From Anaerolineae bacterium (GTDB lineage Bacteria; Chloroflexota; Anaerolineae; B4-G1; DUEL01): a stretch of DNA of 28,991 nucleotides. Every line of letters begins with the position of its first letter. The first letter of the stretch is position 1. Made by a program: the position numbers and the translations under genes. The stretch spans positions 62,001-90,991 of the forward strand of contig JBDOIF010000020.1 in assembly GCA_041082215.1 (NCBI GenBank). Direction: 5' to 3'. Under the pieces are notes generated by a model. That model worked only from the letters and a program-made list of their open reading frames with translations, was not told the DNA's origin and made no database searches. Below are positions 5,039-27,264 of this stretch, one piece after another.

Positions 5039-6925
5039 ATGTACGTTATCGGGACCGCCGGCCACGTTGATCACGGCAAATCAACGCTGGTGCAAGCCCT
5101 CACAGGCATCAACCCCGACCGGCTCCGGGAGGAGCAGGAGCGGGAGATGACCATTGACCTGGGGTTCGCCTGGCTCACCCTCCCCAACGGCGAGTCGGTG
5201 GGAATTGTAGACGTGCCGGGCCACCGGGACTTCATCGAAAACATGCTGGCCGGGGTCGGTGGGATTGACGCTGCCCTCTTCGTCGTCGCCGCCGATGAGG
5301 GGGTGATGCCCCAGACCCGGGAACACCTGGCCATCCTCGACCTGCTGAAGATCGCAGGAGGGGTGGTCGCCCTGACCAAGGTGGACCTGGTGAGCGATCG
5401 GGAGTGGCTGGAGCTGGTGACCGCCGACCTCTCCGAGGCACTGGAGGGTACGGTCCTGGAGGGCGCACCGATCGTCCCGGTGTCGGCCCGCACCGGCGAG
5501 GGGTTGCAGGAGCTGCTGGCTACCCTTCAGGAGCTGCTGGAGCACACCGAGCCCCGGCCCGACCGGGGGCGGCCCCGGCTGTGGGTGGACCGGGTCTTCA
5601 CGATCAGCGGCTTTGGCACAGTGGTTACCGGCACTCTGATAGACGGCACCCTCATCGTGGGGCAGGAGGTGGAAATCCTTCCCCAGGGGCTGAAGGCCCG
5701 CATCCGGGGGCTGCAGAGCCATAAGACGAAGATCGAGCGGGCCGTCCCTGGCAGCCGTGTGGCGATCAACCTGGCCGGCGTCTCCAAAAACGAGCTGGCC
5801 CGCGGAGACCTGGTGACGATCCCCGGCTGGCTCCGCCCGACCATCCTGGCGGATGTCCGGCTGGACTATCTGGCCGATGCCGGCCTCCCTCTCAAGCACA
5901 ACGCCTGGCTCAAGTTCTTCTCCGGCTCGGCAGAGGTGATGGCCCGGGTGCGTCTCCTGGGGCAGGAGGCCCTGCCACCGGGGGAGTCGGGGTGGGCTCA
6001 ACTGGAGCTGAGCGAGCCGCTCCCCCTGGTGCGGGGGGACCGGTTCATTGTGCGTCGGCCCTCCCCGCCCGCCACCGTTGGCGGGGGTGTGGTGGTGGAT
6101 CCCAACCCCGGACGGAAGCACCGCCGCTTTCGCCCTGCGGAGATCGCCCGGCTGGAGACGCTGGCCCGGGGGACCCCTGCCGAGATTCTGCTGGAGGCGC
6201 TCCAGCGGCGAGGGCCTGCAGTGGTACGGGAGCTCCTGGAGGGCTCAGGGCTGGGAGATGCAGCACCTGCCGCGCTGGAGGAGTTGCTGACGGCAGGGGA
6301 GGTAGTGGTGCTGGATGTGGAAGGGACGGCGCACTCCAACCGGCTGGTGGCTTCCCGGGGCTGGTGGACAGCGACGATGGAGCGGATGCAGGGAGAGCTT
6401 GCTGCCTACCACCGCCGCTACCCGCTCCGGCCGGGGATGGGGCGGGAGGGGCTGCGCAGCGCGCTCCGGCTCGACCCCCGCGTCTTCAACGGGCTGATGG
6501 CCCGCGCCACGGCGGAGGGACTGGTGGCTGATGAGGGGGCCACCGTCCGTCTGCCTGACCACACAATCCGCTTCACCCCTGAGCAGCAGCGGGCGGTGGA
6601 GGAACTTCTGGCCCGATTCCGTCGCGCCCCGTACGCTCCCCCCTCGGTCAAAGAGAGCGCGGACGCTGTGGGCGACGAGGTGCTGGCGGTGTTGTTGGCC
6701 CGGGGGGAACTGGTGCAGGTCTCTCCCGAGGTCCTCTTCCTCCCCACCACCTACGAGGAGATGGTCCGCCGCATCCGCGACCACATCCAGCAGAACGGCA
6801 GCATCACCCTGGCCCAGGTCCGTGACCTGTTCCAGACCAGCCGGAAGTACGCCCAGGCGCTGCTGGAATACCTGGATGAGCAGGGAATAACCCGCCGGGT
6901 GGGAGACGAACGGGTGCTGGTATAA
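5039..6925 (+). CDS. selB: Selenocysteine-specific translation elongation factor SelB
   Basis: GTAGHVDHGKS, MTIDLGF, DVPGH, TKVD GTPase motifs; C-terminal winged-helix SECIS-binding end SRKYAQALLEYLDEQGITRRVGDER; 628 aa. Confidence 0.96.
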   Translation: MYVIGTAGHVDHGKSTLVQALTGINPDRLREEQEREMTIDLGFAWLTLPNGESVGIVDVPGHRDFIENMLAGVGGIDAALFVVAADEGVMPQTREHLAILDLLKIAGGVVALTKVDLVSDREWLELVTADLSEALEGTVLEGAPIVPVSARTGEGLQELLATLQELLEHTEPRPDRGRPRLWVDRVFTISGFGTVVTGTLIDGTLIVGQEVEILPQGLKARIRGLQSHKTKIERAVPGSRVAINLAGVSKNELARGDLVTIPGWLRPTILADVRLDYLADAGLPLKHNAWLKFFSGSAEVMARVRLLGQEALPPGESGWAQLELSEPLPLVRGDRFIVRRPSPPATVGGGVVVDPNPGRKHRRFRPAEIARLETLARGTPAEILLEALQRRGPAVVRELLEGSGLGDAAPAALEELLTAGEVVVLDVEGTAHSNRLVASRGWWTATMERMQGELAAYHRRYPLRPGMGREGLRSALRLDPRVFNGLMARATAEGLVADEGATVRLPDHTIRFTPEQQRAVEELLARFRRAPYAPPSVKESADAVGDEVLAVLLARGELVQVSPEVLFLPTTYEEMVRRIRDHIQQNGSITLAQVRDLFQTSRKYAQALLEYLDEQGITRRVGDERVLV

Positions 6926-8655: not shown

Positions 8656-9864
8656 ACCCGAAACGGCCATCAGCACTGCTGCGGCGAACGCAAGCGCCGC
8701 GCCGAAGAGGAAGGGAGCGGAGGGGCCAAACCCGGGCCAGGGGCCGACCCCCTGCCACAACACCCCGGCGATGAGGGAGGCGGGGAAGTCAAGGATGCCC
8801 AGCACCGCGTTGTAGGTGCCGTAGGCGGTCCCCCGCAGATGCTCGGGGACGATGTCGGCGACCATTGCCCTGGTGGTGCCGTAGGCCAGGCCGTAGTATA
8901 CCCCGTAGAGGGCGTAGAGCAGCCAGACCTGCCAGCCGGTGCGGGCCAGGGCCACCCCCAGGTAGATGCCGGCGTAGACCAGCCACCCGCCGACGATGAC
9001 CCGCCGTCGGCCAATGCGGTCGGAGAGGGAGCCAGCGGGAGCGGAGACGAGGGTGTAGACGAGGTTGAAGGTGACCAGCATCCCCAGCACGCCGATCACG
9101 CTCAGCCCCCGCTCCTGGGCGCGGAGGATCAGAAAGGCGTCGGAGGAGTTGCCCAGGTCGAACAGGCCAACGATGAGCATAAAGAGGGCAAAGCGAGGGC
9201 CCATGCCGCGGAAGGAGATGCGGGGTCGCTCGTGGACACCCCTTACCGGCACATCCTGTGCAGCCACCGCGAGGGAGAGGACGGCCAGGAAGGCGGGCAC
9301 CAGGCTGATGAGGACCACCGTCTGGAAGGTGGAGCGGGAAAGGAGGGCCGCTCCCCGCTGTGCCAGCCAGACCACGCCCAGGGCGATCAGCAGCCCCACC
9401 ACGGCCCCACCGGTGTCGGCGGCGCGGTGGAAGCCGAAGGCCAGCCCTCGATGCTCCTCGGAGATCGAGTCGGCCACCAGAGCGTCGCGGGGAGCGGTGC
9501 GAATCCCCTTCCCCACCCGGTCCGCCCAGCGGATGCCGGCCACCATTCCCCAGGAGCTGGCAAAGTAAAAGAAGGGCTTGGCCAGGGCGGAGAGGGCATA
9601 CCCCCCAACAGCCAGCCACTTGCGGGCCTGCAGCCGGTCGGAAAGCCAGCCGGAGAAGACCTTGAGAAGGCTGGCCGTCGCCTCGGCGATCCCCTCAATC
9701 AGGCCGATAATGTTGGTCTTCACCCCCAGCACGTTGGACAGGAAGAGGGGGAGGATGTTGAGGACCATCTCGCTGGAGATGTCCATAAAGAAGCTGGTCA
9801 GGCTTACTGCCCAGATGTTGCGGGGCAGGGAGCGGAGATGTATACGGGACCTGGTTTCGGACAT
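8632..9864 (-). CDS. MFS transporter
   Basis: Multiple TM segments; FMDISSEM, SGWLSDRL, DRVGKGIRTAPRDAL, GSLSDRIGRR. Start at ATG 9864 after GGGAGG; the longer ORF-track start lies in the repeat element. Confidence 0.9.
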   Translation of the reverse strand: MSETRSRIHLRSLPRNIWAVSLTSFFMDISSEMVLNILPLFLSNVLGVKTNIIGLIEGIAEATASLLKVFSGWLSDRLQARKWLAVGGYALSALAKPFFYFASSWGMVAGIRWADRVGKGIRTAPRDALVADSISEEHRGLAFGFHRAADTGGAVVGLLIALGVVWLAQRGAALLSRSTFQTVVLISLVPAFLAVLSLAVAAQDVPVRGVHERPRISFRGMGPRFALFMLIVGLFDLGNSSDAFLILRAQERGLSVIGVLGMLVTFNLVYTLVSAPAGSLSDRIGRRRVIVGGWLVYAGIYLGVALARTGWQVWLLYALYGVYYGLAYGTTRAMVADIVPEHLRGTAYGTYNAVLGILDFPASLIAGVLWQGVGPWPGFGPSAPFLFGAALAFAAAVLMAVSGHKFQASG

Positions 9865-9886
9865 ATTCTTACCCTCCCAGGCCCTG

Positions 9887-9914
9887 ATTATATCTGGAAT
9901 CGAGTAACAGGCAA
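9887..9914 (-). promoter_or_regulatory. Putative sigma70 promoter of the MFS-amidohydrolase operon
   Basis: Minus strand TTGCCT-16 bp-TATAAT, 22 nt upstream of ATG 9864. Confidence 0.65.
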
Positions 9915-9922
9915 CAGTCCTG

Positions 9923-10105
9923 CAGTTTGGGGGCGAGATGTCCCTGGCCCGGGCCGGACCTGGGGAAACACGAGTGGCGCGAATGGAAACGAATACCGCG
10001 AATGGGGCAGGGATTCCTCCTGTTCGCTGTATTCGGGCCATTCGTGGGATTCGCGATCCATAGGCGGGCGAGAGGACCACTCGCCCCGAAATGGAAATAC
10101 GCCCC
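9923..10105. mobile_element. MITE-like palindromic dispersed repeat, copy 2 (outer 11 bp of the left terminal repeat missing or diverged)
   Basis: ~93% identical to 3366-3548, same orientation. Confidence 0.75.
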
Positions 10106-10115
10106 AGCGCTAGCT

Positions 10116-10143
10116 TTGCCTTCCCTACAAATCATGCTATACT
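10116..10143 (+). promoter_or_regulatory. Putative sigma70 promoter of the large uncharacterised operon
   Basis: TTGCCT-16 bp-TATACT with extended -10 (TGcTATACT). Confidence 0.6.
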
Positions 10144-10226
10144 GTATTATGTCACTTCGGACAGCACCGTTCTGCTGCCCGACGGGAAGGCTGGCCCCTG
10201 CAGGTGCGGATAAAGGGGGACTTACA

Positions 10227-10466
10227 ATGAAAGGGGAATTGGGCCAAAAAGCCGGGGAGGCCGGGCTGGATTTCATCCTCGTCCCGCTGGTGGAACTGGC
10301 GCGCGCCCTCGGCCCCCTTGCCGCCCAGGCTCTGCTCCTTGCCCAGCCTCTGCTGGACGGGTGGGTGGATCGGGCGACGCTTTCCGGCATGGCCGACCGG
10401 CTGGATAACCCCCTGGAGATGGAGAAACTGCTGGTCGCGCTGGAAACAGGAGGGGACGAACAATGA
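10227..10466 (+). CDS. Small hypothetical amphipathic protein (79 aa)
   Basis: ATG after AAAGGGGGA; ATGA overlap with the next gene; hydrophobic core ILVPLVELARALGPLAAQALLLAQPLL. Confidence 0.7.
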   Translation: MKGELGQKAGEAGLDFILVPLVELARALGPLAAQALLLAQPLLDGWVDRATLSGMADRLDNPLEMEKLLVALETGGDEQ

Positions 10467-11227
10467 CCGGACTGCTGGGTGGTCTGGAGATCACCGGTAT
10501 GCATCTGGCAGCACTGCTGCTCGTCGTCCTCGCCTTCCTCCTTTTGCTCCTCCTCACAGCGCGGGCGCGGGCCGGACGTCCGGCCCAGTATCGCCCCCTC
10601 CCTCCCTTTGAGCAGCTCTCGGTCAGATTGGGGGCTTCTGCCGAGAGCGGCGCACCCCTCCATCTATCCCTTGGGTCCGGCGGGTTAGGGGGGGACCGCA
10701 CTCTCGCCTCTCTGGCCGCCCTCCAGGTCCTGGAGGGGCTGGCAGATGCCGCCGTCGCCTATGGCAGGCCCCCGCTGGTCACTGCAGGGGACCCCACACT
10801 TGTGCCCGTGGCCCAGGACCTGCTCCGCCGGGCCTACAGGCGGCAGGGGACGCCGGAACGGTACGACCCGACCAGCGTCCGTCTCGTCGCACCCCAACCG
10901 GTCGTCTACGCTGCCGGTGCCGCCGACGTGGCTGCCCATGAGCGGGTCGCCGGCAATGTGGCCCTCGGAGCCTTCCGGGAGGAGGTCTCCCTGATCGCCC
11001 ATGCCGGGGAGCGTCCGTCCCTTCCTCAGATCGCTGCCGCGGACCAGCCACAGGCTCTGGGGGCCCTCTACCCGGCCGACGCTTCTCTGGCCATCGGCGA
11101 GGAGCTGTATGCTGGCGCTGCCCAGCTTGCGCGCTTCCCGCGCTACCTGGCCAGCCTGCGGGTTCAAGATATCCTGCGTCTGCTGATCGTCGCTGTCGTC
11201 CTGCTGAAGGTCCTGGGACTTTTCTGA
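10463..11227 (+). CDS. DUF6754-like membrane protein
   Basis: N-terminal TM, alpha/beta soluble domain (AESGAPLHLSLGSGGL...IGEELYAGAAQL), C-terminal TM after QDILR. Family assigned from motif memory. Confidence 0.65.
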   Translation: MTGLLGGLEITGMHLAALLLVVLAFLLLLLLTARARAGRPAQYRPLPPFEQLSVRLGASAESGAPLHLSLGSGGLGGDRTLASLAALQVLEGLADAAVAYGRPPLVTAGDPTLVPVAQDLLRRAYRRQGTPERYDPTSVRLVAPQPVVYAAGAADVAAHERVAGNVALGAFREEVSLIAHAGERPSLPQIAAADQPQALGALYPADASLAIGEELYAGAAQLARFPRYLASLRVQDILRLLIVAVVLLKVLGLF

Positions 11228-11237
11228 GAGGTTCGAG

Positions 11238-11876
11238 ATGGATCGGTTGACAAAGCGAACCCTGCCCACGGCGGTCGCGGTAGCAGCCGGCCTGCTCACC
11301 CTGATCGGCTACCTGATCCCCTATCCAGTACTGGCCTTCGCCCGCGACCAACTGATCCGCTGGGCAGTGATCGTCGCTGCTTTTGCTTTCGTCCTTGGCT
11401 TCTTTAACGTTCTCGAGGTCCACCTGAGGCGGATCACCAGGCGGAGGCCGGGCGGCTTCTACAGCGCCGTCCTCATCCTCTCCGCCCTCGTCACCCTGGG
11501 GATCACGCTGGTCGGCTCCTTTTCCGCCCCTCTCCGCCCGCTGAACGACTGGTGGTTCGACTACATCCTTTACCCTCTTCAGGCCAGCGCTGCCGGGCTG
11601 ATCGCTTTTACCCTGGCGCTGGCAGCCTTCCGCCTGCTGCGCGGTCGGAGAGGTGGCGAAGCGTTCCTGTTCCTTCTGGGAGCCACGCTGGTCCTGCTGG
11701 GTTCCCTGCCCCTGCCCGGAGTGGCAGGAGCACAGCTTGCGGCTCTCCGGGAGTGGTGGCTGACGGTCCCCTCAATGGCCGGAATGAGGGGCCTTCTGAT
11801 CGGCGTTGGGCTGGGGACCCTCCTCATCGGCCTGCGGGTCATAGCGGGGCTGGACCGCCCCCACAGTGAACCGTGA
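11238..11876 (+). CDS. Polytopic membrane protein (~6 TM), unknown function
   Basis: Successive hydrophobic helices; C-terminal VPSMAGMRGLLIGVGLGTLLIGLRVIAGLDRP; SD GAGG. Confidence 0.8.
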   Translation: MDRLTKRTLPTAVAVAAGLLTLIGYLIPYPVLAFARDQLIRWAVIVAAFAFVLGFFNVLEVHLRRITRRRPGGFYSAVLILSALVTLGITLVGSFSAPLRPLNDWWFDYILYPLQASAAGLIAFTLALAAFRLLRGRRGGEAFLFLLGATLVLLGSLPLPGVAGAQLAALREWWLTVPSMAGMRGLLIGVGLGTLLIGLRVIAGLDRPHSEP

Positions 11877-11889
11877 AACGGAAGGGACG

Positions 11890-13929
11890 ATGATCTACTG
11901 TCCGAAATGCGGCACGGCCAATCGAGAAGGGAGCCGCTTCTGTAATGAGTGCGGCAGTCCTCTCCCTTCCGGCACCGGGCTTCGCTGCCCGATGTGCGGG
12001 GAGATGAACCCCATTGGGAGCGTCTATTGCAACAAATGCAACGCCCGTCTGGTCCCGCTCACCACACCCCAGCCCCCCACGCCCCCGGGAGAAAAGCCTG
12101 CAGGGCCAGCCGGCCCCCCGCCGGTCCGGGGGCTTTCGCTGCCGACGATCCCCTCCCCGGAGAAGAAGCCCCCCGTTCCCGAAATACCCACCGGGGAAGG
12201 AGAGGGGGAAGACTGGCTGGCAGCGCTGCGGGCCACGGCGGAGGAGTTGAAAGCAGAGGGAATAGAGGAGGAGGCCCCTCCACCCGCTGCTGAGGTCGAA
12301 CCACTGGAGATCCCGGATTGGCTGGCCGAGCTGAGGGCTGCTCCGCCCGAGGAGGCTCCCGCTCCTCCCTTCGAAGTGCCGCCTGTGGAGGAGGAGCGGG
12401 CCGTCCCGGATTGGCTGGCCGAGCTGGAGGCCGCTCCGCCCGAGGAGGCCCCTGCTCCCCCCTTCGAGGTGCCGCCTGCGGAGGAGCGGGCCGTCCCGGA
12501 TTGGCTGGCCGAGCTGGAGGCTGCCCCATCCGAGGAGGCCCCCGCCCCTCCCTTTGAGGTGCCGCCTGTGGAGGAGGAGCGGGCTGTACCGGAGTGGCTG
12601 GCCGAGCTGGAAGCCGCTCCGCCCTCAGAGGAAGGGGGTCCCCCTGTCCCTCCTTTTGCCCAGGAGGAAATTGCCGGGGAAACGCCCCCGAAAGCGCCGG
12701 TGTTTATCTCTGAGGAGGGGCTGGCCGTCGAAGAAGGGACGATGCCGGAATGGCTGGCGGAGCTGGCCCCAGGCGAGGTAGAGCAGGCCCCCGCTGCGGC
12801 TCCTCCCTTCCCCCTGACCGAACCTCTGGCCGCACCGCCGGCGGTAGAAGGGCTGGTCCCGGCCGAAATCCCGAAGTGGCTGGAGGGGATGCGCCCGTCG
12901 GCAAAGAGGGAGGCTCCGCCGGAGGAGCCGGTGGAGACCAGAGGGGTGCTGGAAGGGCTGCGTGGCACGTTGCCCGCCAGCCGCGCCGTCGAGATGCCGG
13001 AGGGGGCAGCCCCCTCCCTCCCCGCCGCCCCCAGCGCGGCCTCCATCGCCCGCGCCGAGCTGCTCCAGGAGCTGCTGAGCCGTCCCCCTGCCCCTGCCCG
13101 CCCCCTCGCAAAAGAGCAGCGGCGGGACATAGGCTGGGTCGTTCAGCGGGCCGTTGTCGCCCTTCTGCTGATCCTTTCCATTGTGGCCCCGATCGCAGTC
13201 CCTATCCCCCTCTTCTCCGTTCCCTCATCCCCGGCGGCCGACCGGTTCTTCAACGCTGTCCAGCAGAACGTCGGACCTGACGAGCCGGTACTGGTGGCAT
13301 TCGAGTACAGCCCGGCCGAGGCGGACGAGATGGAACGGGTGGCAGAGCCGGTCCTGCGCCATCTGTTGGGACAGGGCGCACGGCTGATCATCGTCAGCAC
13401 CCGGCCGGAGGGGCCGGCCCTCGCCGAGCGGCTGCTGGCCCGGCTGAGGCCAGAGGCCCGGCAGGTGGCCAATCTGGGCTACCAGCCCGGACAGACCGCC
13501 GGTGTACAGGGGCTGCTTGCCGGATTGGACCGGCGGTCGGACCTGCGGACGGGGTTGCCCGCCGCCCAGGTCGCGGCGATGGAGGGGGTGCATACCGTCG
13601 CCGACGTGGCGATGGTGGTCGTCCTGGCCGCCCAGCCGGACGAACTGCGTGCCTGGGTGGAGCAGGTGACGCTGGCCTACCCGGACCTGCCGCTGGTAGC
13701 CGGGATCAGCGCACGGGTCGAGCCGCTGGCTGCTCCCTACCTGGACCCCGGCGCCGGTCAGTTGAGGGGAACGGTCGCCGGTCTGGCCGGGGCTGCTGCC
13801 TACGAAGCACACCTGGGGGCAGGCGGGCGGGCCGGATTTTACCTGAACTCGCTGGGGTTGGCCCAACTGACCGTAGTTGGATTGATGCTGGTGGGAGCGG
13901 CGATTTTCCTGGTGGGAGGGCGGAGATGA
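11890..13929 (+). CDS. Double-zinc-ribbon protein with acidic Pro-rich PDWL repeats, TM helix, globular domain and C-terminal TM
   Basis: Four CxxC pairs (CPKC, CNEC, CPMC, CNKC); P/E/A-rich linker; TM AVVALLLILSIVAPIAV; VLVAFEYSPAEADEM domain; GLAGAAAYE followed by a TM. Start at ATG 11890 after GGAAGGGA. Confidence 0.8.
   Translation: MIYCPKCGTANREGSRFCNECGSPLPSGTGLRCPMCGEMNPIGSVYCNKCNARLVPLTTPQPPTPPGEKPAGPAGPPPVRGLSLPTIPSPEKKPPVPEIPTGEGEGEDWLAALRATAEELKAEGIEEEAPPPAAEVEPLEIPDWLAELRAAPPEEAPAPPFEVPPVEEERAVPDWLAELEAAPPEEAPAPPFEVPPAEERAVPDWLAELEAAPSEEAPAPPFEVPPVEEERAVPEWLAELEAAPPSEEGGPPVPPFAQEEIAGETPPKAPVFISEEGLAVEEGTMPEWLAELAPGEVEQAPAAAPPFPLTEPLAAPPAVEGLVPAEIPKWLEGMRPSAKREAPPEEPVETRGVLEGLRGTLPASRAVEMPEGAAPSLPAAPSAASIARAELLQELLSRPPAPARPLAKEQRRDIGWVVQRAVVALLLILSIVAPIAVPIPLFSVPSSPAADRFFNAVQQNVGPDEPVLVAFEYSPAEADEMERVAEPVLRHLLGQGARLIIVSTRPEGPALAERLLARLRPEARQVANLGYQPGQTAGVQGLLAGLDRRSDLRTGLPAAQVAAMEGVHTVADVAMVVVLAAQPDELRAWVEQVTLAYPDLPLVAGISARVEPLAAPYLDPGAGQLRGTVAGLAGAAAYEAHLGAGGRAGFYLNSLGLAQLTVVGLMLVGAAIFLVGGRR
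12313..12624 (+). repeat. Intragenic 90-93 bp tandem repeat (3 full + 1 partial units)
   Basis: PDWLAELxAAPxEEAPAPPFEVPPxEE(E)RAV units start at 12313, 12406, 12496 and 12589. Confidence 0.9.
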
Positions 13930-14600
13930 CGACGGCGGACCTGGTCGGCACGGTGGTCGGTGTGGCGCTGACCCTCCTGATCCTCAGCTATATGATCGGC
14001 GATAATCCCCTCTACCGGCTTGCGCTCTATCTGCTGACCGGCGCGGCAGTCGGATACGGGGTCGCCCTGGCTGTTGTGGCCCTTTTCCAGCAGGTGATCC
14101 TGCCGCTCCTTCAGGGAGGGACCGCGGAGCGGTATGGCCTGCTGGTACCCATCGTTCTGGGACTGCTCCTGCTCTTCAAGGGATTCCCCCGCTGGGCGCC
14201 GTGGGGCAACCTGTCTACCGCCCTCCTGATCGGCGTCGGGGCAGCCGTGGCTGTGGCAGGAGCGTTGCTGGGGACGGTCCTCCCCCAGTCCGTAGCCTCC
14301 GGCTCCCTCGCCGACTGGCTGCGAGGCGGCGCGGCAGGGCTGATCAACAGCCTCCTGATCGCCGTGGGAACGATCTGCGCCCTGCTGGCCTTCGCCTTTA
14401 CCGTCCCCCGACAGCGCGCCCTTCAGAGATTGTGGCGGGGGACAGCAGGCGCAGCAGGGGTAATTGGGCGGCTTTTCCTGGCATCGGCCTTCGGCGCCGC
14501 CTTCGCCGCCGCCCTCACGGCGAGCCTCTCCATCCTCATTGGCCGGATTTACACCCTCATCGAGGGGGTCCAGCGACTGCTCCAGATGCGGGGAGGATAA
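13926..14600 (+). CDS. Polytopic membrane protein (~6 TM), unknown function
   Basis: LTLLILSYMIGDNPLYRLA motif, Gly/Ala-rich TM helices; ATGA-coupled to the upstream gene. Confidence 0.8.
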   Translation: MTTADLVGTVVGVALTLLILSYMIGDNPLYRLALYLLTGAAVGYGVALAVVALFQQVILPLLQGGTAERYGLLVPIVLGLLLLFKGFPRWAPWGNLSTALLIGVGAAVAVAGALLGTVLPQSVASGSLADWLRGGAAGLINSLLIAVGTICALLAFAFTVPRQRALQRLWRGTAGAAGVIGRLFLASAFGAAFAAALTASLSILIGRIYTLIEGVQRLLQMRGG

Positions 14601-14610
14601 ACGGGACCGC

Positions 14611-16368
14611 ATGTCCAGAGAACAGACCATCGGCTCAATTCTGATCGCCGACTGCGGCAGTGTGCTCACCAAGGCGGTGCTCCTGGACAGGGTGGACGGG
14701 ACCTACCGCTTCGTGGCCCGGGGGCAGGCGCTGACGACCGTCGAGCCCCCCTGGCGGGATATTTCCCTGGGGGTCCAGCACGCCATCCAGCAGATTGAGG
14801 GCACCACGGGATGGGTTCTGCTGGACGAACGGAACGATCTGATCACTCCTCAGGAAGCTGGCGGTCGGGGGGTAGATGCCTTCATCGCCATCGGCAGTGC
14901 CGCCCGCCCTGTCCGGGTGGTGGTGGCCGGGCTCGTGCCCGAGCTGAGCCTTTCCAGCCTGATACGGGCCGTTTCCAGCACATACAGCACCGTCGAGGGT
15001 GTGATCACCCTGGCCCCCGACTGCCGAATGTCCGAGGAAGAACAGGTCCAGATGATCCTGAACCGCCAGCCAGACGTGGTCTGCATTGCCGGCGGGACGG
15101 ACGGGGGGGCGGCTTACCCTGTGCTGGAGCTGGTCCAGACGGCGACGCTGGCCTGTTCGCTGATGGGGGAAGGAAAACGGCCCGGCCTCCTCTTTGCCGG
15201 CAACACCGCCCTCCGCGAACGGGCTGTGAAGGTTGTGGGAGGGCAGGCCGACCTCCGTCCTGTAGACAATGTCCTTCCCTCGCTGGGGGCGGAAAACCCG
15301 CGGGGTGTACAGGAGGAGCTCGATGCCCTGTACCGGGAGCGGAACCTGGTGAACCTGCCTGGAGGGGAACTGCTGACCCGATGGAGCACTCTCCCCGTCC
15401 TCCCTACCGCCACAGCCTTCGGCCGTCTTGTCCACTACCTCTGGTTTCTGGACCAATCCCCCAAAGGCACGCTGGGCATTGACGTGGGAGCGGCTACCAC
15501 CACCGTGGCCGCCGTTTTTGACGGGCGGCTTTCCCTTACCGTCCACAGCGGCCTGGGGTCCGTTTACGGTGGGCGACAGCTTCTGGAAGAGCGGGGAGCG
15601 GAGGCGGTCACCCGTTGGGTCCCTGCTGAGATGAGCGGCGATGAGGCGCTGGGGGGGCTGCTCAACCGGGAGATCCGGCCCGGAAGCGTGCCGGAGACGG
15701 CGGAGGAACTCTGGCTGGAGCAGGCATTAATCCGGGAGGCGATCCGGGAGACGCTGAGGACGGCCCGTCCGGGGTGGGGGCCGAACGGCGCTCAGCCCTA
15801 TCCCCATCTGACCCCTCTGTTCGATCCCATCCTGGTCAGCGGGGGCTGCCTGGCCGGCGCCCCTCGCCCCGGCCAGATCGCCCTGATGGTCCTGGACGCC
15901 GTCGAGCCGATCGGCATCAGTACCCTTCTGGTTGATCCCTACGGGCTGGCTCCCATTCTCGGCGCGGTGGCCAGCCTGAAGCCGCTTGCGGCGGTCGAGG
16001 TGCTGGACGGCGGCGGGATCGTCAACCTGGCGACGGTGATCGCCCCTGTGGGCGTGGCGCGTAAGGGGGAGACGGTCCTCCGGCTCCGCATCCATTATGA
16101 AGAGGGAGGGACCCTGGATGTGGAGGTGGCCTATGGCTCGCTGGAGGTGCTCCCCCTGCCGCCCGGTCAGGAGGCGGTGCTGGAGCTCCGGCCCCGGGGC
16201 CGCTTCGATGTGGGGCTGGGGGGGCCCGGGAAGGGGGGCAAGCGGCGGGTCCGGGGTGGGCTGGCAGGGCTGATTGTGGACGCCCGCGGCCGCCCGCTTC
16301 GCCTTGGGCCCGACCCCGCCCAGCGACGGGAACAGGTCCAGCAGTGGCTGTGGGACGTGGGAGGATAG
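14611..16368 (+). CDS. GlmL (glutamate mutase L)-like ASKHA/actin-fold ATPase
   Basis: Phosphate-1 ILIADCGSVLTKA; IAGGTDGG; phosphate-2 LGIDVGAATT; adenosine-like ILVSGG; C-terminal GLIVDARGRPL. Start ATG 14611. Confidence 0.8.
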   Translation: MSREQTIGSILIADCGSVLTKAVLLDRVDGTYRFVARGQALTTVEPPWRDISLGVQHAIQQIEGTTGWVLLDERNDLITPQEAGGRGVDAFIAIGSAARPVRVVVAGLVPELSLSSLIRAVSSTYSTVEGVITLAPDCRMSEEEQVQMILNRQPDVVCIAGGTDGGAAYPVLELVQTATLACSLMGEGKRPGLLFAGNTALRERAVKVVGGQADLRPVDNVLPSLGAENPRGVQEELDALYRERNLVNLPGGELLTRWSTLPVLPTATAFGRLVHYLWFLDQSPKGTLGIDVGAATTTVAAVFDGRLSLTVHSGLGSVYGGRQLLEERGAEAVTRWVPAEMSGDEALGGLLNREIRPGSVPETAEELWLEQALIREAIRETLRTARPGWGPNGAQPYPHLTPLFDPILVSGGCLAGAPRPGQIALMVLDAVEPIGISTLLVDPYGLAPILGAVASLKPLAAVEVLDGGGIVNLATVIAPVGVARKGETVLRLRIHYEEGGTLDVEVAYGSLEVLPLPPGQEAVLELRPRGRFDVGLGGPGKGGKRRVRGGLAGLIVDARGRPLRLGPDPAQRREQVQQWLWDVGG

Positions 16369-16372
16369 GAGG

Positions 16373-17440
16373 ATGCCCATCTACCCACCTCAAACCATCG
16401 TCTCACCTCTGACACTGGTCCGGCGGGAGCGATGGCTCCCGGCTCCAGGGGAGATCCTGGTGCGGGAAGGGGAACGGGTGGACCCGATCCAGGTCATTGG
16501 CCGCGCCCTTGTTCCCGGCGGTTTCCACATCGTGAACGTCGCCAGGGGCCTCGGCGTCTCCCCCCAGGCCGTCCACCGTTATCTCAGGGTCAAAGCCGGT
16601 CAGGAGGTCAGGCGGGGGGAGGTGCTGGCCGCCCGTGGGGGATTGGGCCGGCGCGTCTGCCGCTCCCCCGTGGATGGCCGTGTCGCCGAGAGCGGAGGGG
16701 GGCGGATTCTCATCGAAGCCTCGCCCCAGGAGCTGGAGGTCCGGGCCGATTACTACGGCACCGTGACGCGGGTGATCCCCGAGCGGGGGGTAATCCTCCA
16801 GATCTCCGGCTCGCTCATCCAGGGGGCCTGGGGGAATGGACGGCTGGAGATCGGCGTGCTGCACGCGATGACGGAAACGCGGGATCAGCTCCTGAAGGGA
16901 AGGGCGCTGGACGCTTCCTGCCGGGGCACCATCCTTCTCGGCGGCGCATATATGGACGAGGAGGCGCTGGAGCGGGCAGTAGAGTTCCAGGCGCGAGGGA
17001 TCATCGTTGGAAGCATCCCTCCTGGGTTGCTGAAGAAGGCGGCGCAGGTCCCCTGCCCGGTGATCGCGACGGAGGGTATCGGCACCGCCCCGATGTCCAG
17101 CCGCATTTTCCAGCTTCTCTCCACCCATAACGGCCGCGAGGCCATTCTGGACGGACGATTCCAGAGCCGATGGGAACGGGTCTGGCCAGAGATCATCATC
17201 CCCCTGCCTGCGGAGGCAGGCACGGACCGGCTGCGGCCTCAGGACACCCCCCTCCAGGTGGGAGACCGGGTACGGGCGGTCCGATCCCCCAACATCGGGC
17301 TGACGGGCACAGTGGTGGACCTGTCTGAAAGGCCGGTGCGTCTCCCCACCGGGGCGCGCACGCCGGCGATCAGGGTTCAGCCAGAGGGCGGAAGAGAGCC
17401 GGTATGGATTCCCGTGCCCAACCTGGAGATCCTGCGCTAG
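16373..17440 (+). CDS. Uncharacterised protein with RnfC/NqrA-like barrel-sandwich hybrid motifs and a C-terminal KOW/SH3-like domain
   Basis: GEILVREGERV; VKAGQEVRRGEVLA...SPVDGRV; central alpha/beta segment ARGIIVGSI; LQVGDRVRAVRSPNIGLTGTVVDL. SD AGGAGG directly before ATG 16373. Confidence 0.75.
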   Translation: MPIYPPQTIVSPLTLVRRERWLPAPGEILVREGERVDPIQVIGRALVPGGFHIVNVARGLGVSPQAVHRYLRVKAGQEVRRGEVLAARGGLGRRVCRSPVDGRVAESGGGRILIEASPQELEVRADYYGTVTRVIPERGVILQISGSLIQGAWGNGRLEIGVLHAMTETRDQLLKGRALDASCRGTILLGGAYMDEEALERAVEFQARGIIVGSIPPGLLKKAAQVPCPVIATEGIGTAPMSSRIFQLLSTHNGREAILDGRFQSRWERVWPEIIIPLPAEAGTDRLRPQDTPLQVGDRVRAVRSPNIGLTGTVVDLSERPVRLPTGARTPAIRVQPEGGREPVWIPVPNLEILR

Positions 17441-17449
17441 GAGGAAGTT

Positions 17450-18034
17450 ATGGAAGACATGGATTTGGAACTGGAAGGAATGGAGGAAGAAGAAGAGGGG
17501 GTCGAGCGACAGAATCGGACCTTTGTCCTCCTGGTGGCGGTGATGGGCGGCCTCCTGTTGATCGGCATCATAGCCTTCTGTGCCTGGGTCCTGATCGTCG
17601 GACGGGGGATGCTCAGAGGAGAGGCGGCGGTCGCTCCAACCAGCACGCCACCCCAGGTCGCGGCCGCCGATCTGACCGCTACGGCGGAGGCCCTTGCCCC
17701 GACCACGGCGCCGACCACCGAGGAGGCCGCTCCGGCGACCGAGCCGCCGACGCTTTCCCCTTCTCCCTCGCCGACCCCATCTCCCACCCCCAGTCCCACC
17801 GCAAGCCCCACTCCCTCTCCTGCGGAGGCCCGTCCAGGGACGCCGGCCAGCGCCGCCGGGGTGACGCCTACCATCGGCCCACAACGTACCACGCCACGGA
17901 CGACGGCGGCGGTAACACCGTCGGCCCCCACCTCCTCTCCTGAAACGGGCCTGGGGACCTTCACAGCGCTGATCCTGGCCGCCGGGCTTCTCGTCCTCCT
18001 GTTCGTCGCGCGTCGGCTGCGGATCGCCCACTGA
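17450..18034 (+). CDS. Pro/Thr-rich membrane/surface protein with an LPXTG-like (SPETG) C-terminal signal
   Basis: Acidic N-terminus, TM, (SP/TP)n stalk, SPETG + hydrophobic helix + RRLR; SD AGGAGG. Confidence 0.8.
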   Translation: MEDMDLELEGMEEEEEGVERQNRTFVLLVAVMGGLLLIGIIAFCAWVLIVGRGMLRGEAAVAPTSTPPQVAAADLTATAEALAPTTAPTTEEAAPATEPPTLSPSPSPTPSPTPSPTASPTPSPAEARPGTPASAAGVTPTIGPQRTTPRTTAAVTPSAPTSSPETGLGTFTALILAAGLLVLLFVARRLRIAH

Positions 18035-18124
18035 GCGGCAGCCGTTTCCGCCAGAACAAAGCGCCAACGCGCGGGCCCTGGCCTGCCGTTGGCGTCACTT
18101 ATATCCCGACCCTGTCGAGGTTTT

Positions 18125-19483
18125 ATGAAAAACGTGGAACGCCCAGAGACACAGGCCTGCCTGCTCGCCCATCTGTCCGGTGGGAAGTGTTGCGCCCTCG
18201 TCGGCCTGAGCAACACCGGCAAATCGGCTCTCCTGCGTTCTCTATGTATGCAGGAGCCTCTACCGGCCCCGTTGAGGGATACCTTCCCTGTCTATGTGGA
18301 TTGCAACCGGATGCTGGAGCTTTCCCAGCAGGGCTTCTATGAGGCAATCCTGCGGGCCGTCCGCTCCCGGGCGCGGGACCGGTCGCTCGAGCCGGACCTG
18401 CTGGCAAGGCTGGAGACGGCCTATGAGACCGTTGTCCACCCGGCCTCCTCTCTCTCCATTCCCCTGGGGTTCAACGACGCGATGGAGGGGCTGTGTGAGG
18501 CCCGACTGCGACCGGTGCTGGTCCTGGATGAGTTCGACGAACCCTTCCAGGCGCTGGAAGGGCGGATCTTCCTGAACCTGCGGGCGCTGCGGGATCGGTA
18601 TCGGGAACGGCTGCTGTACGTGACCGCCACCGCACGGACGCTGGAGGAGCTTCGGGACGACATAGAGACGGCCGAATTCCGCGAGCTCTTCGTCGGCCAA
18701 GTCTGCCGACTGGGAATGCTGGAAGAAGGGAGCGCCAGGGCGACCATCGCTGCTCTGGCAAATGAGGAAGGAGTTCCGCTCGACTCCGGGGAGGTCGAGT
18801 TCATCGTCCGGGCCTCCGGCGGACACCTGGGGCTGATCCACGGGGTCTTCCGCCTGCTTCTCCGGGCGCGGAGGGAGGCTCCGCAGACCTACGGACGGAT
18901 GGGGGTGCGGCTGGTGGAGGAGGCCCTGGCGGGGGACGGGGCGGTGTGTGGAGAATGTGAGCGGCTATGGGCTCAGCTCACCCCCACCGAACGCCGGGCG
19001 CTTTTGGCGCTGACCCGGGGAGAGCAACTGCCTCTGGAAGAGCAGGAGCAGCTCCGCCGGCTGGGTCTGGTCGCCCAGGAGGGGGCGGTCTTCTCCGACG
19101 CCTTTGCCGGGTTTGTGCGACGCTTCAGGCGGGAGGGAGCGGCCCGGCCGATGGGCCTCTGGCTGGACGAGGATGCCGGAGAGGTATATGTGGACGGGCG
19201 CCGCGTCCCCACGCTGACGGAGCTGGAATACCGCCTGCTTCAGACCCTCTACCGCCGGATGGGCAAGCTGTGCGATAAGTATCTGCTGGTGGAAGAGGTG
19301 TGGGGGGAATCGTACATTGACGAAGTGGACGATGCCCGCATCGAGAAGCTGATCAGTCGCCTGCGGGCCAAGATCGAGGAGGACCCCGCCAACCCCCGCT
19401 ACCTGATCACCGTCCGTGGGCGGGGTTATCGGCTGGTTGGCCGGCCGGATGATGAGTTGCCAGGAACGGTCAATGTGGTATAA
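18125..19483 (+). CDS. P-loop (STAND/AAA-like) NTPase fused to a C-terminal OmpR/PhoB-type winged-helix DNA-binding domain
   Basis: Walker A GLSNTGKS; Walker B VLVLDEFD; SGGHLGL; C-terminus LTELEYRLL...ISRLRAKIEEDPANPRYLITVRGRGYRL. Confidence 0.85.
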   Translation: MKNVERPETQACLLAHLSGGKCCALVGLSNTGKSALLRSLCMQEPLPAPLRDTFPVYVDCNRMLELSQQGFYEAILRAVRSRARDRSLEPDLLARLETAYETVVHPASSLSIPLGFNDAMEGLCEARLRPVLVLDEFDEPFQALEGRIFLNLRALRDRYRERLLYVTATARTLEELRDDIETAEFRELFVGQVCRLGMLEEGSARATIAALANEEGVPLDSGEVEFIVRASGGHLGLIHGVFRLLLRARREAPQTYGRMGVRLVEEALAGDGAVCGECERLWAQLTPTERRALLALTRGEQLPLEEQEQLRRLGLVAQEGAVFSDAFAGFVRRFRREGAARPMGLWLDEDAGEVYVDGRRVPTLTELEYRLLQTLYRRMGKLCDKYLLVEEVWGESYIDEVDDARIEKLISRLRAKIEEDPANPRYLITVRGRGYRLVGRPDDELPGTVNVV

Positions 19484-19484
19484 T
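19457..19484 (+). promoter_or_regulatory. Putative tRNA promoter inside the 3' end of the upstream CDS
   Basis: TTGCCA-16 bp-TATAAT with extended -10 TG; the upstream TAA stop is part of the -10 box. Confidence 0.65.
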
Positions 19485-19499: not shown

Positions 19500-19575
19500 G
19501 CCACCCTAGCTCAATCGGCAGAGCAACCGCTTCGTAAGCGGTCGGTTGTCGGTTCAAGTCCGACGGGTGGCTCCA
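19500..19575 (+). tRNA. tRNA-Thr (anticodon CGT)
   Basis: Acceptor stem GCCACCC/GGGTGGC; anticodon arm ACCGC-TTCGTAA-GCGGT; T arm GTCGG-TTCAAGT-CCGAC; encoded CCA. Confidence 0.96.
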
Positions 19576-19581
19576 TCGGCC

Positions 19582-19608
19582 GGGCCCCGACGGTGGCGGG
19601 GCCTTTTG
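19582..19608 (+). terminator. Intrinsic terminator after the tRNA
   Basis: GGCCCCG-7 nt-CGGGGCC followed by TTTTG. Confidence 0.7.
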
Positions 19609-24048: not shown

Positions 24049-25513
24049 TGCGCCCCTGGCCTACCGGGCGGTGCGGGGTGGGCTATGGGTGGCACTGAGT
24101 TCGTATTGGACCATTGGGTTTGGCTTTGTCGCTAACATCATCCTGACCCGTCTTCTTTCCCCCGAAGCCTTTGGCACCTTCGCCCTGGCGATGTTCTTTG
24201 CCCAGTTGCTACGGTTGGAGCCGAAGCTGGGCATTGGATATGCTTTCGGGCAATACAGGGAGACATCCGGGGAGACAGTAGGGACCCTCCTGGGTCTAAA
24301 CGTTCCCATTATTCTGGGCGGCTTTCTCCTGACCCTGCTGGCTGCGCCGGTCCTGGTACGATTGGGTTACGAAACGCTCGTCGCCCAGGTGGCTATCGTC
24401 CTTGCGCTGGCGGCGATGATGGAAAGCGCAGGTGGGCTGGCTGGAATTGTGCTGGACAAGGAACTGCGTTTCGGGCCGACCAGCCTGATGCAGAGCCTGG
24501 CCTTTCCGCTCTCTTATATCCCCGCCTTCTGGCTGGCGACCCATGGAGGTGGAGTCTGGAGTCTGGCCTCTCAGACTCTCACTTACAGCATATTGCTGCT
24601 CATCGGTGCATGGTGGATCCTTGGGCACCAATTGCCGGGGATTTTCCGAACGCCCTGGCGGTTCAATCCGCTGCTGGCTCAGCGGTTTCTTCGTTTCGGA
24701 GCAGGCGTAGGCCTGTGGCTGATGGCCGGGATGCTCTTTTCCCAGCTGGACAACTTCCTTATCGGCACCTTTGCCGGAGTGACAGCGCTGGGCTACTACG
24801 ACCGGGCCTATCGGATGGCCCAGTGGCCGGGGCTGTTGTTCACGACGTTACTTTCCCGCACCGCCTTCTACACGTACGCACGCCTGCAGGATGACCGGCC
24901 GCGGCTGGAAAAGACCGCGACCATGCTGACGTGGGCGGTCGGTATGGTGGCCGTGCCGCTGGCGATCGCCGTCTTTATCGCGGCACGGGATATCGTTGTT
25001 CTACTCTATGGGGAGCGGTGGCTGCCCAGCGCGCTGTTCCTGCAGATTCTCATCGCCTTCTTTGTGGTGCGGCCCCATCTGGAGAACGCTGGAGTGTTGC
25101 TGAACGCGATGGGCAAACCCGCGCGCGCCGCGACACTGCTTTGGGCCCAGGTGGGAGTCCTGGGCATTACGGGCCTCCCGCTGACGCTGCGCTGGGGTGC
25201 ACTGGGGACCTGTGGGGCAGTGGGGCTGGCGCTGCTGGTGGGCATAGTGTTGGCCTCCTGGTACATCCGCCAGGAACTCTCAACAAACGTCGGTTCCAGC
25301 CTGCTGGTACCGCTACTGGCGGGTAGCACTACATTGTTGGGGTACGCACTGCTCCTGCGATGGATACCGCTGGGGGGCCTGGGACTCCTCGCACGGCTCC
25401 TGGCCAAAGCCGCCTGGACGTTTTTGGCCTTCTATGCCCTGGCCTTCGCCCTGCGGATCCGGGAGACGGGGGAGCGGGCAAGATATGTGTGGAGATTGAT
25501 AAGAGAGAGGTGA
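24038..25513 (+). CDS. Polysaccharide flippase (Wzx/WzxC-like, MOP superfamily)
   Basis: Many TM helices; ILTRLLSPEAFG; QLDNFLIG...ALGYYDRAYR; LLYGERWLPS. Start ATG 24038 after GGAGGGGG. Confidence 0.88.
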   Translation: MADDAPLAYRAVRGGLWVALSSYWTIGFGFVANIILTRLLSPEAFGTFALAMFFAQLLRLEPKLGIGYAFGQYRETSGETVGTLLGLNVPIILGGFLLTLLAAPVLVRLGYETLVAQVAIVLALAAMMESAGGLAGIVLDKELRFGPTSLMQSLAFPLSYIPAFWLATHGGGVWSLASQTLTYSILLLIGAWWILGHQLPGIFRTPWRFNPLLAQRFLRFGAGVGLWLMAGMLFSQLDNFLIGTFAGVTALGYYDRAYRMAQWPGLLFTTLLSRTAFYTYARLQDDRPRLEKTATMLTWAVGMVAVPLAIAVFIAARDIVVLLYGERWLPSALFLQILIAFFVVRPHLENAGVLLNAMGKPARAATLLWAQVGVLGITGLPLTLRWGALGTCGAVGLALLVGIVLASWYIRQELSTNVGSSLLVPLLAGSTTLLGYALLLRWIPLGGLGLLARLLAKAAWTFLAFYALAFALRIRETGERARYVWRLIRER

Positions 25514-25516
25514 GTT

Positions 25517-26356
25517 GTGGAGACGGGTCTGACCAGACAGATCGGTTCAAGAATTCTGGATGGACTTTCTTTTCTTCCTTATTTCAAGGGGAAAGGGCTG
25601 ATCGCTTTGTGGACAATCCGGCTTTGGGGTCGCTCTCAACCCTTGACAATGAGATTGCCCAATGGAAGTCGAATATGGGTTGGGTATGATAACGCAGGCC
25701 ATGCCGTATTGCCTTATTGTATTGGCAAATATGAGCGCGAATTCACCCACTTTTTCCTGAGCTTCCTGCGCCGATTGAAGCCCGGAGAAAGCGTGATTGA
25801 CCTGGGAGCAAATGTTGGTTATTACTCCATAATGGCAGCCTGGCATCTGGGCCATTTTCAGGGGAGCCGGGTCTTTGCTTTTGAGCCCAATCCACATGCG
25901 TTCGCTTACCTGGAGCGCAATAAAGAACTGAATCGCCTGGACAATTTAGTGGCAGTTCAGCAGGCAGTTGGCGAGCGTAAGGGGCACATAACTCTGTATA
26001 TCGATCCTGATGGGATCACCTTTGGTTCCTTACAACCTTACCTTTCGCATCTCACGCAAGCCTGCGAGGTCCCAGTCACCACGTTAGACGAGTTTCTGCA
26101 CCCGTATTCGGATGTTAAAATCGCCCTGGTAAAAATGGACATTGAAGGTGCAGAGTTGCTGGCTTTGCAGGGGGCTCGGAAGACTTTGGAGAAGTTCCAT
26201 CCGGTCATTTTTTATGAAGAGAATGAGGCCGCGTATATAGCCTTTGGCTATGCCGTGGAAGAATTGCGGGAATTTTTGCGGGCTTTTGGGTATCGGCTTC
26301 ACTTTATGAAGCCAACAAATGTGCAAAATGTGATTGCTTTGCCAGAGGGCTTATGA
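25517..26356 (+). CDS. FkbM-family methyltransferase
   Basis: VIDLGANVGYYS; VFAFEPNP; TTLDEF; VKMDIEGAELLAL. Confidence 0.9.
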   Translation: METGLTRQIGSRILDGLSFLPYFKGKGLIALWTIRLWGRSQPLTMRLPNGSRIWVGYDNAGHAVLPYCIGKYEREFTHFFLSFLRRLKPGESVIDLGANVGYYSIMAAWHLGHFQGSRVFAFEPNPHAFAYLERNKELNRLDNLVAVQQAVGERKGHITLYIDPDGITFGSLQPYLSHLTQACEVPVTTLDEFLHPYSDVKIALVKMDIEGAELLALQGARKTLEKFHPVIFYEENEAAYIAFGYAVEELREFLRAFGYRLHFMKPTNVQNVIALPEGL

Positions 26357-27258: not shown

Positions 27259-27264
27259 TGGAAT

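Follow-up and report, generated by a model that had tools for sequence, protein, structure and literature searches.

The window of this study is the whole 28,991-nt stretch at positions 62,001 to 90,991 (forward strand) of contig JBDOIF010000020.1, from the genome assembly of an Anaerolineae bacterium of the phylum Chloroflexota (GCA_041082215.1). Here we describe eight + strand genes of this window, named g1 to g8, that occupy positions 10227-18034 and encode a small soluble protein (g1), four membrane proteins (g2 to g5), a long-form protein of the MutL/GlmL family (g6), its partner (g7) and a protein with a sortase-type sorting signal (g8). The consecutive junctions measure -4, +10, -11, -4, +10, +4 and +9 nt, in agreement with the original prediction, which proposed from the window alone eight co-oriented genes within about 13 bp of each other behind one putative promoter. 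A sigma-70-like site is indeed found ahead of g1 (Table 1), in the 362-nt divergent spacer that g1 has in common with a - strand MFS transporter gene; the region holds four such sites against 0.8 +/- 0.7 in shuffles. The genome (3.53 Mb, 96.13% complete) has Anaerolineae and Thermoflexia metagenome-assembled genomes as its closest named relatives, and the DNA of the window recurs in hot-spring metagenomes.

Pfam and NCBIfam give a name to three of the eight proteins, namely g2 (DUF6754), g4 (double zinc ribbons) and g6 (PF13941, MutL), while g1, g3, g5 and g8 belong to no family of these two collections. No ABC, Sec/Tat, pilin or Fe-S family was present in the Pfam/NCBIfam scans of the window proteins, as had been anticipated. 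The PADLOC defence models matched none of their families in eight of the nine proteins g1 to g9, the sole match being to g8 (E 3.5e-6), within its low-complexity Pro/Thr region. Taken with the PDB sequence searches and the fold searches, none of these comparisons identifies a subunit of an already characterised complex, in line with the original prediction. On balance, we lean towards the view that g1-g8 constitute one operon for an undescribed ATP-coupled cell-envelope complex, and not for a B12-mutase helper.

The MutL-family protein g6 and its partner g7

g6 is a member of Pfam PF13941, with 205.3 bits against a cut-off of 27 (E 2e-60) over profile positions 1-446 of 450. It scores far under the NCBIfam cut-offs of GlmL (NF040745, 81.5 of 475 bits), Or-4 (NF040744, 66.1 of 600 bits) and glmL_fam (TIGR01319, 61.7 of 204 bits). 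Among 36 family sequences, residues D14, G16, T20, G161, G162, G166, D291, G293 and G411 are at least 90% conserved, and we take these Asp, Gly and Thr positions to be the phosphate and adenosine (nucleotide-binding) motifs of the ASKHA fold. The same 36 sequences have at their C-terminus an additional beta domain of about 120 aa, in which a D-x-RGRP motif (D557, R559, G560, R561 and P562) is invariant. Hence, g6 shares with GlmL/MutL and Or-4 the PF13941 membership and the Asp/Gly/Thr motifs, but it differs from them by this C-terminal domain, by its fixed partner g7 and by its membrane neighbours.

The original prediction assigned to this ATPase a role apart from glutamate mutase, and the genomic context agrees with it. 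There is one PF13941 gene in the own genome, and Met_asp_mut_E was not found in this 96.13%-complete assembly. No mutase occurs among the flanking genes scanned with Pfam, the remaining loci of relatives and metagenomes having been scanned with operon-gene profiles only. Another genome of the same class, G116, encodes one paralogue of each kind. The short one, of 443 aa (490 bits), lies directly behind the D-ornithine aminomutase OraS/OraE with its B12-binding domain, and the long one, of 606 aa, lies inside the membrane operon. In a quick maximum-likelihood tree of PF13941 (28 rows, arbitrary root), the eight short forms (8/8) make up one clade, with a Shimodaira-Hasegawa-like approximate likelihood ratio test (SH-aLRT) support of 100, apart from all 20 long forms. 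Because of the sub-cut-off NCBIfam scores, the missing Met_asp_mut_E, the split of paralogues in G116 and the separate clade of short forms, we conclude that g6 is not a B12-mutase (glutamate-mutase) helper.

PDB searches with the g6 sequence and with a g6 profile returned no real match, the WD40 rows having no passing stretch. As a separate observation on G116, the locus of the short paralogue (L036:5596-9555) consists of D-ornithine 4,5-aminomutase genes, the short MutL-family gene and two alanine-racemase-type genes, and represents a cluster for ornithine fermentation in a genome of the class Anaerolineae.

g6 and g7 form a fixed (obligate) partner pair, fused in some lineages. The g7 model, with a predicted local distance difference test (pLDDT) of 84.8, can be read as three domains. 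A barrel-sandwich domain at residues ~47-120 superposes on RnfC (8ahx_C, Z 8.0, root mean square deviation (rmsd) 2.8, 63 residues aligned) and on NqrA (4u9o_A, Z 7.5, rmsd 2.5, 65 residues aligned). It is accompanied by a swivelling domain similar to those of PTS enzyme I (2wqd_A, Z 11.3, rmsd 2.2, 106 residues aligned) and DdrA (2d0o_A, Z 7.1, rmsd 3.5, 117 residues aligned), with further matches to the pyruvate kinase C-domain, aconitase X and RraA. The last one is a KOW/SH3-like domain (Z 8.2, 59 residues aligned). Foldseek yields a single match at E<=0.001, with a TM-score of 0.15, which agrees weakly with the three-domain reading.

The original prediction called this protein RnfC/NqrA-like, a label that holds for ~65-75 N-terminal residues but overstates the likeness of the whole. 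The Pfam score for RnfC_N (18.3 bits) is under the cut-off of 25.6, no further Rnf/Nqr domains (NADH, FMN or Fe-S modules) were detected in g7 by Pfam, and the rest of the protein corresponds to the swivel and KOW domains, without Fe-S, flavin or NADH domains. g7 is therefore not an RnfC/NqrA subunit. In their own complexes, RnfC and NqrA are peripheral subunits seated on membrane subunits. The pair also recalls the DdrA/PduG reactivases, since the ASKHA domain of g6 and the swivel domain of g7 together resemble the domain set of DdrA and a g6-g7 fusion exists; however, this is a fold-level likeness without sequence similarity, g7 adds the barrel-sandwich and KOW domains, and neither a beta subunit nor a client dehydratase is present here.

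Membrane proteins, motif array and wall-anchor signal

A hydropathy scan predicts two transmembrane helices in g2, six in g3, two in g4, six in g5 and two in g8, and none in g1 and g7. These counts bear out the part of the original prediction that described two proteins with a globular domain between transmembrane helices and two proteins of about six helices. The equal topologies do not go along with common descent: paralogy was rejected, as hhalign assigned a probability of 2.8% to the pair of g2 and the g4 C-terminus and of 0.9% to the pair of g3 and g5, in agreement with BLASTP, and g2, g3, g4 and g5 are four unrelated families. PDB profile searches with g2, g3, g5 and the g4 C-terminus gave no solved relative by sequence, and the comparison of g5 with the named ESM Atlas clusters gave no usable match.

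g2 matches DUF6754 (PF20539) with 107.5 bits against a cut-off of 27 (E 8e-31). In its model (pLDDT 91.2, predicted template modelling score 0.84) two long helices flank a three-layer alpha/beta domain, in which a conserved Gly-rich loop of consensus HVSLGxGG follows strand 1. The fold corresponds to a generic Rossmann type, with a best Z of 9.9 and 81 chains at Z>=8. Foldseek found no match at E<=0.001 and the ESM Atlas search retrieved DUF6754 clusters only. Arg-rich segments on both flanks suggest that the alpha/beta domain is cytoplasmic.

In g4, the double zinc ribbons recognised by Pfam (nt 11890-12048) are followed by an array at ~nt 12211-12886 of six motifs of the form [ED][LIV]PxWL ([LIVMA]PxW[LM]) plus a seventh DWL, with a 93-nt tandem repeat inside it (12311-12624). 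Then come a transmembrane helix (residues 429-447), an acidic alpha/beta domain expected on the outer side of the membrane, and a second transmembrane helix (658-676). Neither the zinc ribbons and repeat array of g4 nor the sorting-signal-like C-terminus of g8 had been mentioned in the original prediction. The motif consensus, [ED]-[LVI]-P-[D]-W-L, occurs in a median of 5 copies (range 0-45) in 101 g4 homologues. In the own genome, at least two copies are found in only 5 of 16,087 open reading frames (ORFs) of at least 100 aa, including g4 with its 6 copies. The tails of six Chloroflexota FtsZ proteins read D-[IV]-P-x-F-L-R-[RKN] and the g4-type proteins [LIV]PxW[LM], so that both share a [LIV]-P-x-aromatic-[LM] core in which g4 always has W and FtsZ has F. 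Judged by these letters, the g4 motifs resemble the FtsZ C-terminal peptide, which binds FtsA and other partners. A complex prediction of g6 and g7 with g4 residues 140-198 (two motifs), run without controls, gave a score of 0.00 twice, where the mark was 0.32.

Another protein of this genome deserves mention in relation to the motif. It is encoded on the - strand of contig C100, outside the window (C100:63961-67020, ~1020 aa). Its acidic centre, with at least 6 E[IV]PxWL copies, lies between TPR-like regions at the two termini, and it is the only other own-genome protein that reaches the motif number of g4. It may share the receptor of the g4 motif.

g8 ends in SPETG followed by 20 hydrophobic residues and an RRLR tail. 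Its homologues end in xTG, a hydrophobic stretch and [AS]RR[LM]R, and the same layout was seen in the 60 homologue C-termini inspected. The strict regular expression xPx[TS]G captures a part of the family (23/87). The own genome encodes two sortases. The LPXTG-type signal and the genomic sortases make g8 a putative sortase substrate, its cleavage being predicted only. A tie of the operon to peptidoglycan was also explored through the penicillin-binding protein (PBP) transpeptidase, which is present in 270 of 301 genomes of the phylum; as it also occurs in families without the g1-g8 set (hereafter, the module), it does not discriminate.

Conservation in Chloroflexota and beyond

Of 41 related genomes, 39 carry g6, with 48-72% identity. 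At 16 loci from relatives, g7 adjoins g6 in all cases (16/16), g5 is adjacent in 13 and g2 is present in nine, with four more loci cut off within g4 by the end of the contig. From the genomes of named species, a scan provided a best set of 80 loci, 79 of them labelled as Chloroflexota lineages and one as Bacteroidales. Synteny was counted on those of the 80 with enough flank (Table 1), and the conservation of gene order foreseen in the original prediction is evident there. Of 301 genomes sampled from the whole phylum, 79 carry DUF6754, 163 the g7 family and 168 PF13941, the latter with a score over the cut-off in 135; the distribution of the module is nearly all-or-none per family. The g7-family, PF13941 and PBP tallies include a few unpublished genomes (G078, G267, G312, G185 and G213), none of which is among the detailed loci. 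In three genomes of other families only the pair g6-g7 is left, and two of these encode a soluble [LIV]PxW[LM]-rich protein directly upstream of g6, with an N-terminal zinc ribbon by Pfam in one (L033:7339-8823) and no Pfam family in the other (L038:10776-12839).

An exhaustive profile-free search with g6 gathered 617 representative clusters at E<=1e-30, nearly all of ~580 aa, with some fusions among them. P0244 (995 aa) joins g6 to a complete g7 (hhalign probability 100, E 2.2e-42, g7 columns 5-354), a form shared by 8 of 12 cluster members. In P0203 (935 aa, 10 of 12 cluster members) a double zinc ribbon and motifs precede g6, and P0269, of Bacillota label, joins a peptidase M1 domain to g6. 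The relatives of P0244 in fused form carry Neomarinimicrobiota and Planctomycetota labels (61-65% identity), and the unfused ones, of ~600 aa, carry Planctomycetota, Planctomycetaceae, Marinimicrobia and Deltaproteobacteria labels (70-73% identity over the g6 part). The original prediction had placed similar clusters in other anaerobic lineages; they do occur elsewhere, but given the labels of these relatives their spread should rather be described as covering several phyla.

Scanning metagenomes with P0244 recovered 47 loci, 22 of them of at least 8 kb. In 17 of these 22, g6/g7 are followed by g2, g3 and a short g4, and g5 comes after in 15, two contigs ending earlier; one long locus ends after g7. 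In 15 of the long loci g1 precedes g6. The metagenome-type g4 proteins have ~290 aa and carry neither zinc ribbon nor motifs, the metagenome-type DUF6754 proteins score 402-409 bits, and g8 is absent from the 22 long loci. The loci range from 35% to 69% GC, with g6 and g7 fused in 10 and separate in 8. The zinc ribbon and motif array of g4, g8 and sometimes g9 are additions of Chloroflexota. The same gene content in a rearranged order, together with two independent fusions, constitutes strong evidence for one functional unit.

Some of the metagenome loci have other gene combinations or neighbours. In L173, L176, L179 and L181, a DUF58/VWA gene comes after those of g7 and a long DUF6754 protein (~9800-13300). 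Upstream of the module, L138:7856-9617 encodes a YegS-like lipid kinase and CdsA, and downstream of it L180:17742-20772 encodes PlsX, FabH and FabD; a link with lipids was dismissed, two unrelated loci being too few.

Table 1. Features of the operon and its surroundings in the window, with counts over named loci having enough flank
Feature	Position	Strand	Description	Named loci
Sigma-70-like promoter site	10116..10143	+	TTGCCT-16-TATACT, 9/12 positions, TG extension; consensus match only	
g1	10227-10466	+	ATG inside ORF 9927-10466; 79 aa, soluble, no family; core gene set	upstream of g2 in 36/47
g2	10463-11227	+	DUF6754: transmembrane helix, Rossmann-like alpha/beta domain, second transmembrane helix	present in 46/47
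g3	11238-11876	+	six transmembrane helices, no family; conserved C-terminal R/G-rich motif	present in 46/47
g4	11866-13929	+	double zinc ribbons, motif array, transmembrane helix, putative extracytoplasmic alpha/beta domain, transmembrane helix	present in 46/47
g5	13926-14600	+	six transmembrane helices, no family; conserved LLGDNPLYR motif	present in 46/47
g6	14611-16368	+	ATG inside ORF 14464-16368; long-form MutL/GlmL-family ASKHA protein	
g7	16373-17440	+	ATG inside ORF 16274-17440; barrel-sandwich hybrid, swivelling beta/beta/alpha and KOW-like domains	present in 72/74
g8	17450-18034	+	acidic N-terminus, transmembrane helix, Pro/Thr-rich spacer, sortase-type sorting signal	present in 64/68
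g9	18089..19483	+	STAND-type NTPase fused to OmpR-type winged helix	downstream of g8 in 22/59
Promoter-like site, best of the region	19457-19484		11/12 positions; ahead of tRNA-Thr, overlapping the 3' end of g9	
tRNA-Thr(CGT)	19500-19575			
Terminator-like hairpin	19582-19604		behind tRNA-Thr	
GNAT gene	332-1333	-		
ORF of 913 aa	859-3600	+	no family; overlaps the GNAT and SHOCT-domain genes	
SHOCT-domain gene	1333-2511	-		
SelB gene	5039-6925		selenocysteine elongation factor, complete	
Polysaccharide-synthesis cluster	25000-28991		GC 46-57%, against about 66% before it	

Proposed working, other readings and neighbouring genes

If g1-g8 encode an ATP-coupled envelope complex, its working can be outlined as follows. 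g6 would bind and hydrolyse ATP in the cytoplasm, and g7 would be the docking or coupling subunit, whose RnfC/NqrA-like barrel-sandwich domain would seat g6 on a membrane core of 16 transmembrane helices from g2, g3, g4 and g5. The Rossmann-like domain of g2 would lie on the cytoplasmic side, where it may bind a ligand of nucleotide type. Conformational work would travel through the core to the outward alpha/beta domain of g4, and in Chloroflexota it would also reach the wall through g8, one end of which would sit in the membrane while the other is joined to peptidoglycan. The array of motifs in g4 may be a multivalent recruiter of g6/g7 or of another hub, comparable to the FtsZ C-terminal peptide with FtsA. 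The most likely output would be transport or remodelling of an envelope component. Known systems in which a membrane partner holds an actin-fold protein, by a bitopic protein or a short linear motif, are MreB-RodZ-MreC-MreD, FtsA-FtsZ and PilM-PilN; no homology to the operon proteins was detectable in any of the three.

A number of observations weigh against this proposal. Although the linkage of the genes, their fusions, the domain folds, the conserved motifs and the signals of topology are observed, physical assembly, ATPase activity, the direction of coupling and the substrate are all points that we infer. For transcription there is no more than a hint, from one metatranscriptome library in which a few short contigs lie on g2, g4 and g8 and DNA carry-over is possible. 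The fold match of g2 is generic, with a flat list of Z values, and g3 and g5 match no transporter family in Pfam, in PDB profile searches or, for g5, in ESM Atlas. The motif array is absent from 12 of the 101 g4 homologues and from all metagenome-type g4 proteins, so it is accessory and not core. The gene set is also divided in places: g2-g5 are missing in 1 of 47 named loci and g7 in 2 of 74, three loci of one genus keep g6-g7-g8 apart from g2-g5, in four large Chloroflexia-like genomes g(1)2-g6 form one group and g7 lies elsewhere (in G263, g2 lies at 0.217 Mb and g7 at 1.476 Mb, about 1.26 Mb apart), and the metagenome loci L173, L176, L179 and L181 carry g7-g2 with no g6 in their flanks. 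Finally, Chloroflexota families f12, f24, f25 and f30 bear PBP and are without the module; since many PBP-bearing families of the phylum lack it, the module is not universally needed for a walled cell.

The divided loci, in which some lineages part g7, or g2-g5, from g6, are what could be expected if the genes were chance neighbours or had only their regulation in common, with unrelated functions. We give hardly any credit to this explanation, as the same seven families are kept through reordering and across phylum labels and two independent fusions have joined them. A cytoskeletal or morphogenetic system has more in its favour and is nevertheless rather unlikely in our view. There, g6 would polymerise like MreB or FtsA, g4 would be a RodZ-like adaptor that combines a binding module in the cytoplasm, a transmembrane helix and a domain outside, g3 and g5 would be MreD-like and g8 a tie to the wall, the whole guiding wall growth or the cell-cell junctions of filaments. 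The ASKHA fold family of g6, the architecture of g4 with its multivalent FtsZ-tail-like motifs, the wall-anchor signal of g8 and the fusion of zinc ribbon and motif array to g6 in P0203 would fit such a system. However, the own genome already has adjacent FtsZ and FtsA genes, two MreB genes and MreC, and the contigs whose ATPase has relatives labelled Planctomycetota, Marinimicrobia and Deltaproteobacteria have no motif array or g8. Moreover, Pfam puts g6 in MutL only, own-genome MreB and FtsA being separate genes, and we take g6 to belong to the GlmL/hydantoinase-like branch and not to the known filament formers. SepF was not found in the own genome. A replacement for FtsA, SepF or MreB was ruled out, given the FtsZ, FtsA, MreB and MreC genes just mentioned. 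To our knowledge, cultured Anaerolineae and Thermoflexia are described as non-motile, and for this reason a role as a gliding motor is not favoured. No machinery is described for the Chloroflexota gliding motor in the accessible part of PMC13104615, and FcmB, according to the accessible part of PMC12645912, is a ParM-derived actin, unrelated to this operon.

The kinship of g6 with GlmL and Or-4 raises another possibility, namely that g6 and g7 act as a DdrA/PduG-like reactivase or chaperone of a cofactor-dependent enzyme, on which they would swap a ligand that is damaged or tightly bound; the client could be a membrane enzyme formed by g2-g5. In this sense, the clade of short forms adjoins slow-evolving long forms in the tree, the middle domain of g7 superposes on the swivel domain of DdrA, and the Rossmann-like domain of g2 possibly binds nucleotides. 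We find this improbable, because the likeness to DdrA does not go beyond the fold and is surpassed in score by other swivel domains, g2-g5 gave no match to a catalytic family, and neither Met_asp_mut_E in the own genome nor a mutase among the Pfam-scanned flanking genes was found. There is likewise a slight chance that the operon encodes a ligand-gated ion or solute channel, with g3 and g5 as the pore, g2 as an RCK/KTN-like gate, and g6 and g7 as regulators instead of motors. The g2 model does superpose on KtrC (6i8v_A, Z 9.4, rmsd 2.7, 114 residues aligned) and on MthK, TrkA-N and KefC (Z 8.5-8.9), and the two conserved proteins of six transmembrane helices have polar motifs. But sirtuins, PGK, SIS domains and GT-B halves score equally in the flat Z list, Foldseek found no match of g2 at E<=0.001, and no channel or transporter family was detected in g3 or g5.

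The reading of an ATP-coupled envelope complex could be carried further, although we hold this extension as doubtful: the operon would represent a new class of energy-coupled membrane machine, ancient and highly conserved (the ATPases labelled Marinimicrobia, Planctomycetota and Deltaproteobacteria share about 70% identity), with an ASKHA motor in place of an ABC, P-type, rotary, AAA+ or Sec one. GlmL would then be a trimmed offshoot of it, and Chloroflexota would have gained a motor-clustering array, comparable to tandem WH2 repeats on actin, and a covalent link to the wall.

Downstream of the operon lie g9, a possible regulator loosely linked to it, then tRNA-Thr with a terminator-like hairpin behind, and unrelated genes. 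Elsewhere in the window, the drop in GC at its end covers genes for a flippase-type Polysacc_synt_3 protein, an FkbM methyltransferase, a GT2 protein, a Glyco_trans_1_2 protein and a methyltransferase, and the cluster looks like a horizontally acquired surface-glycan island. Since the SelB gene is complete, the organism probably makes selenoproteins. The 913-aa ORF is probably a spurious frame in high-GC DNA.

We found no paper on DUF6754 or on this operon, subscription journals and unindexed supplements being outside the search. The three-domain reading of g7, the Rossmann-like fold of DUF6754, the FtsZ-tail-like array of g4, the sortase-type signal of g8, the fusion of a motif array to g6 and the split, within one genome, of a mutase-linked short paralogue and an operon-linked long one are new. 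The operon would encode a widespread and strongly conserved membrane complex, present in Chloroflexota and under Planctomycetota, Marinimicrobia and Deltaproteobacteria labels, with one Bacillota-labelled g6 fusion. If the proposal is true, thousands of genes annotated as 'glutamate mutase L' would be mislabelled, DUF6754 and four orphan families would receive a function, and ATP would be coupled to work across a membrane in a new way. Furthermore, the motif array of g4 offers a concrete hypothesis of a peptide and its receptor, and the complex may provide a handle on the poorly understood envelope of the Chloroflexota.

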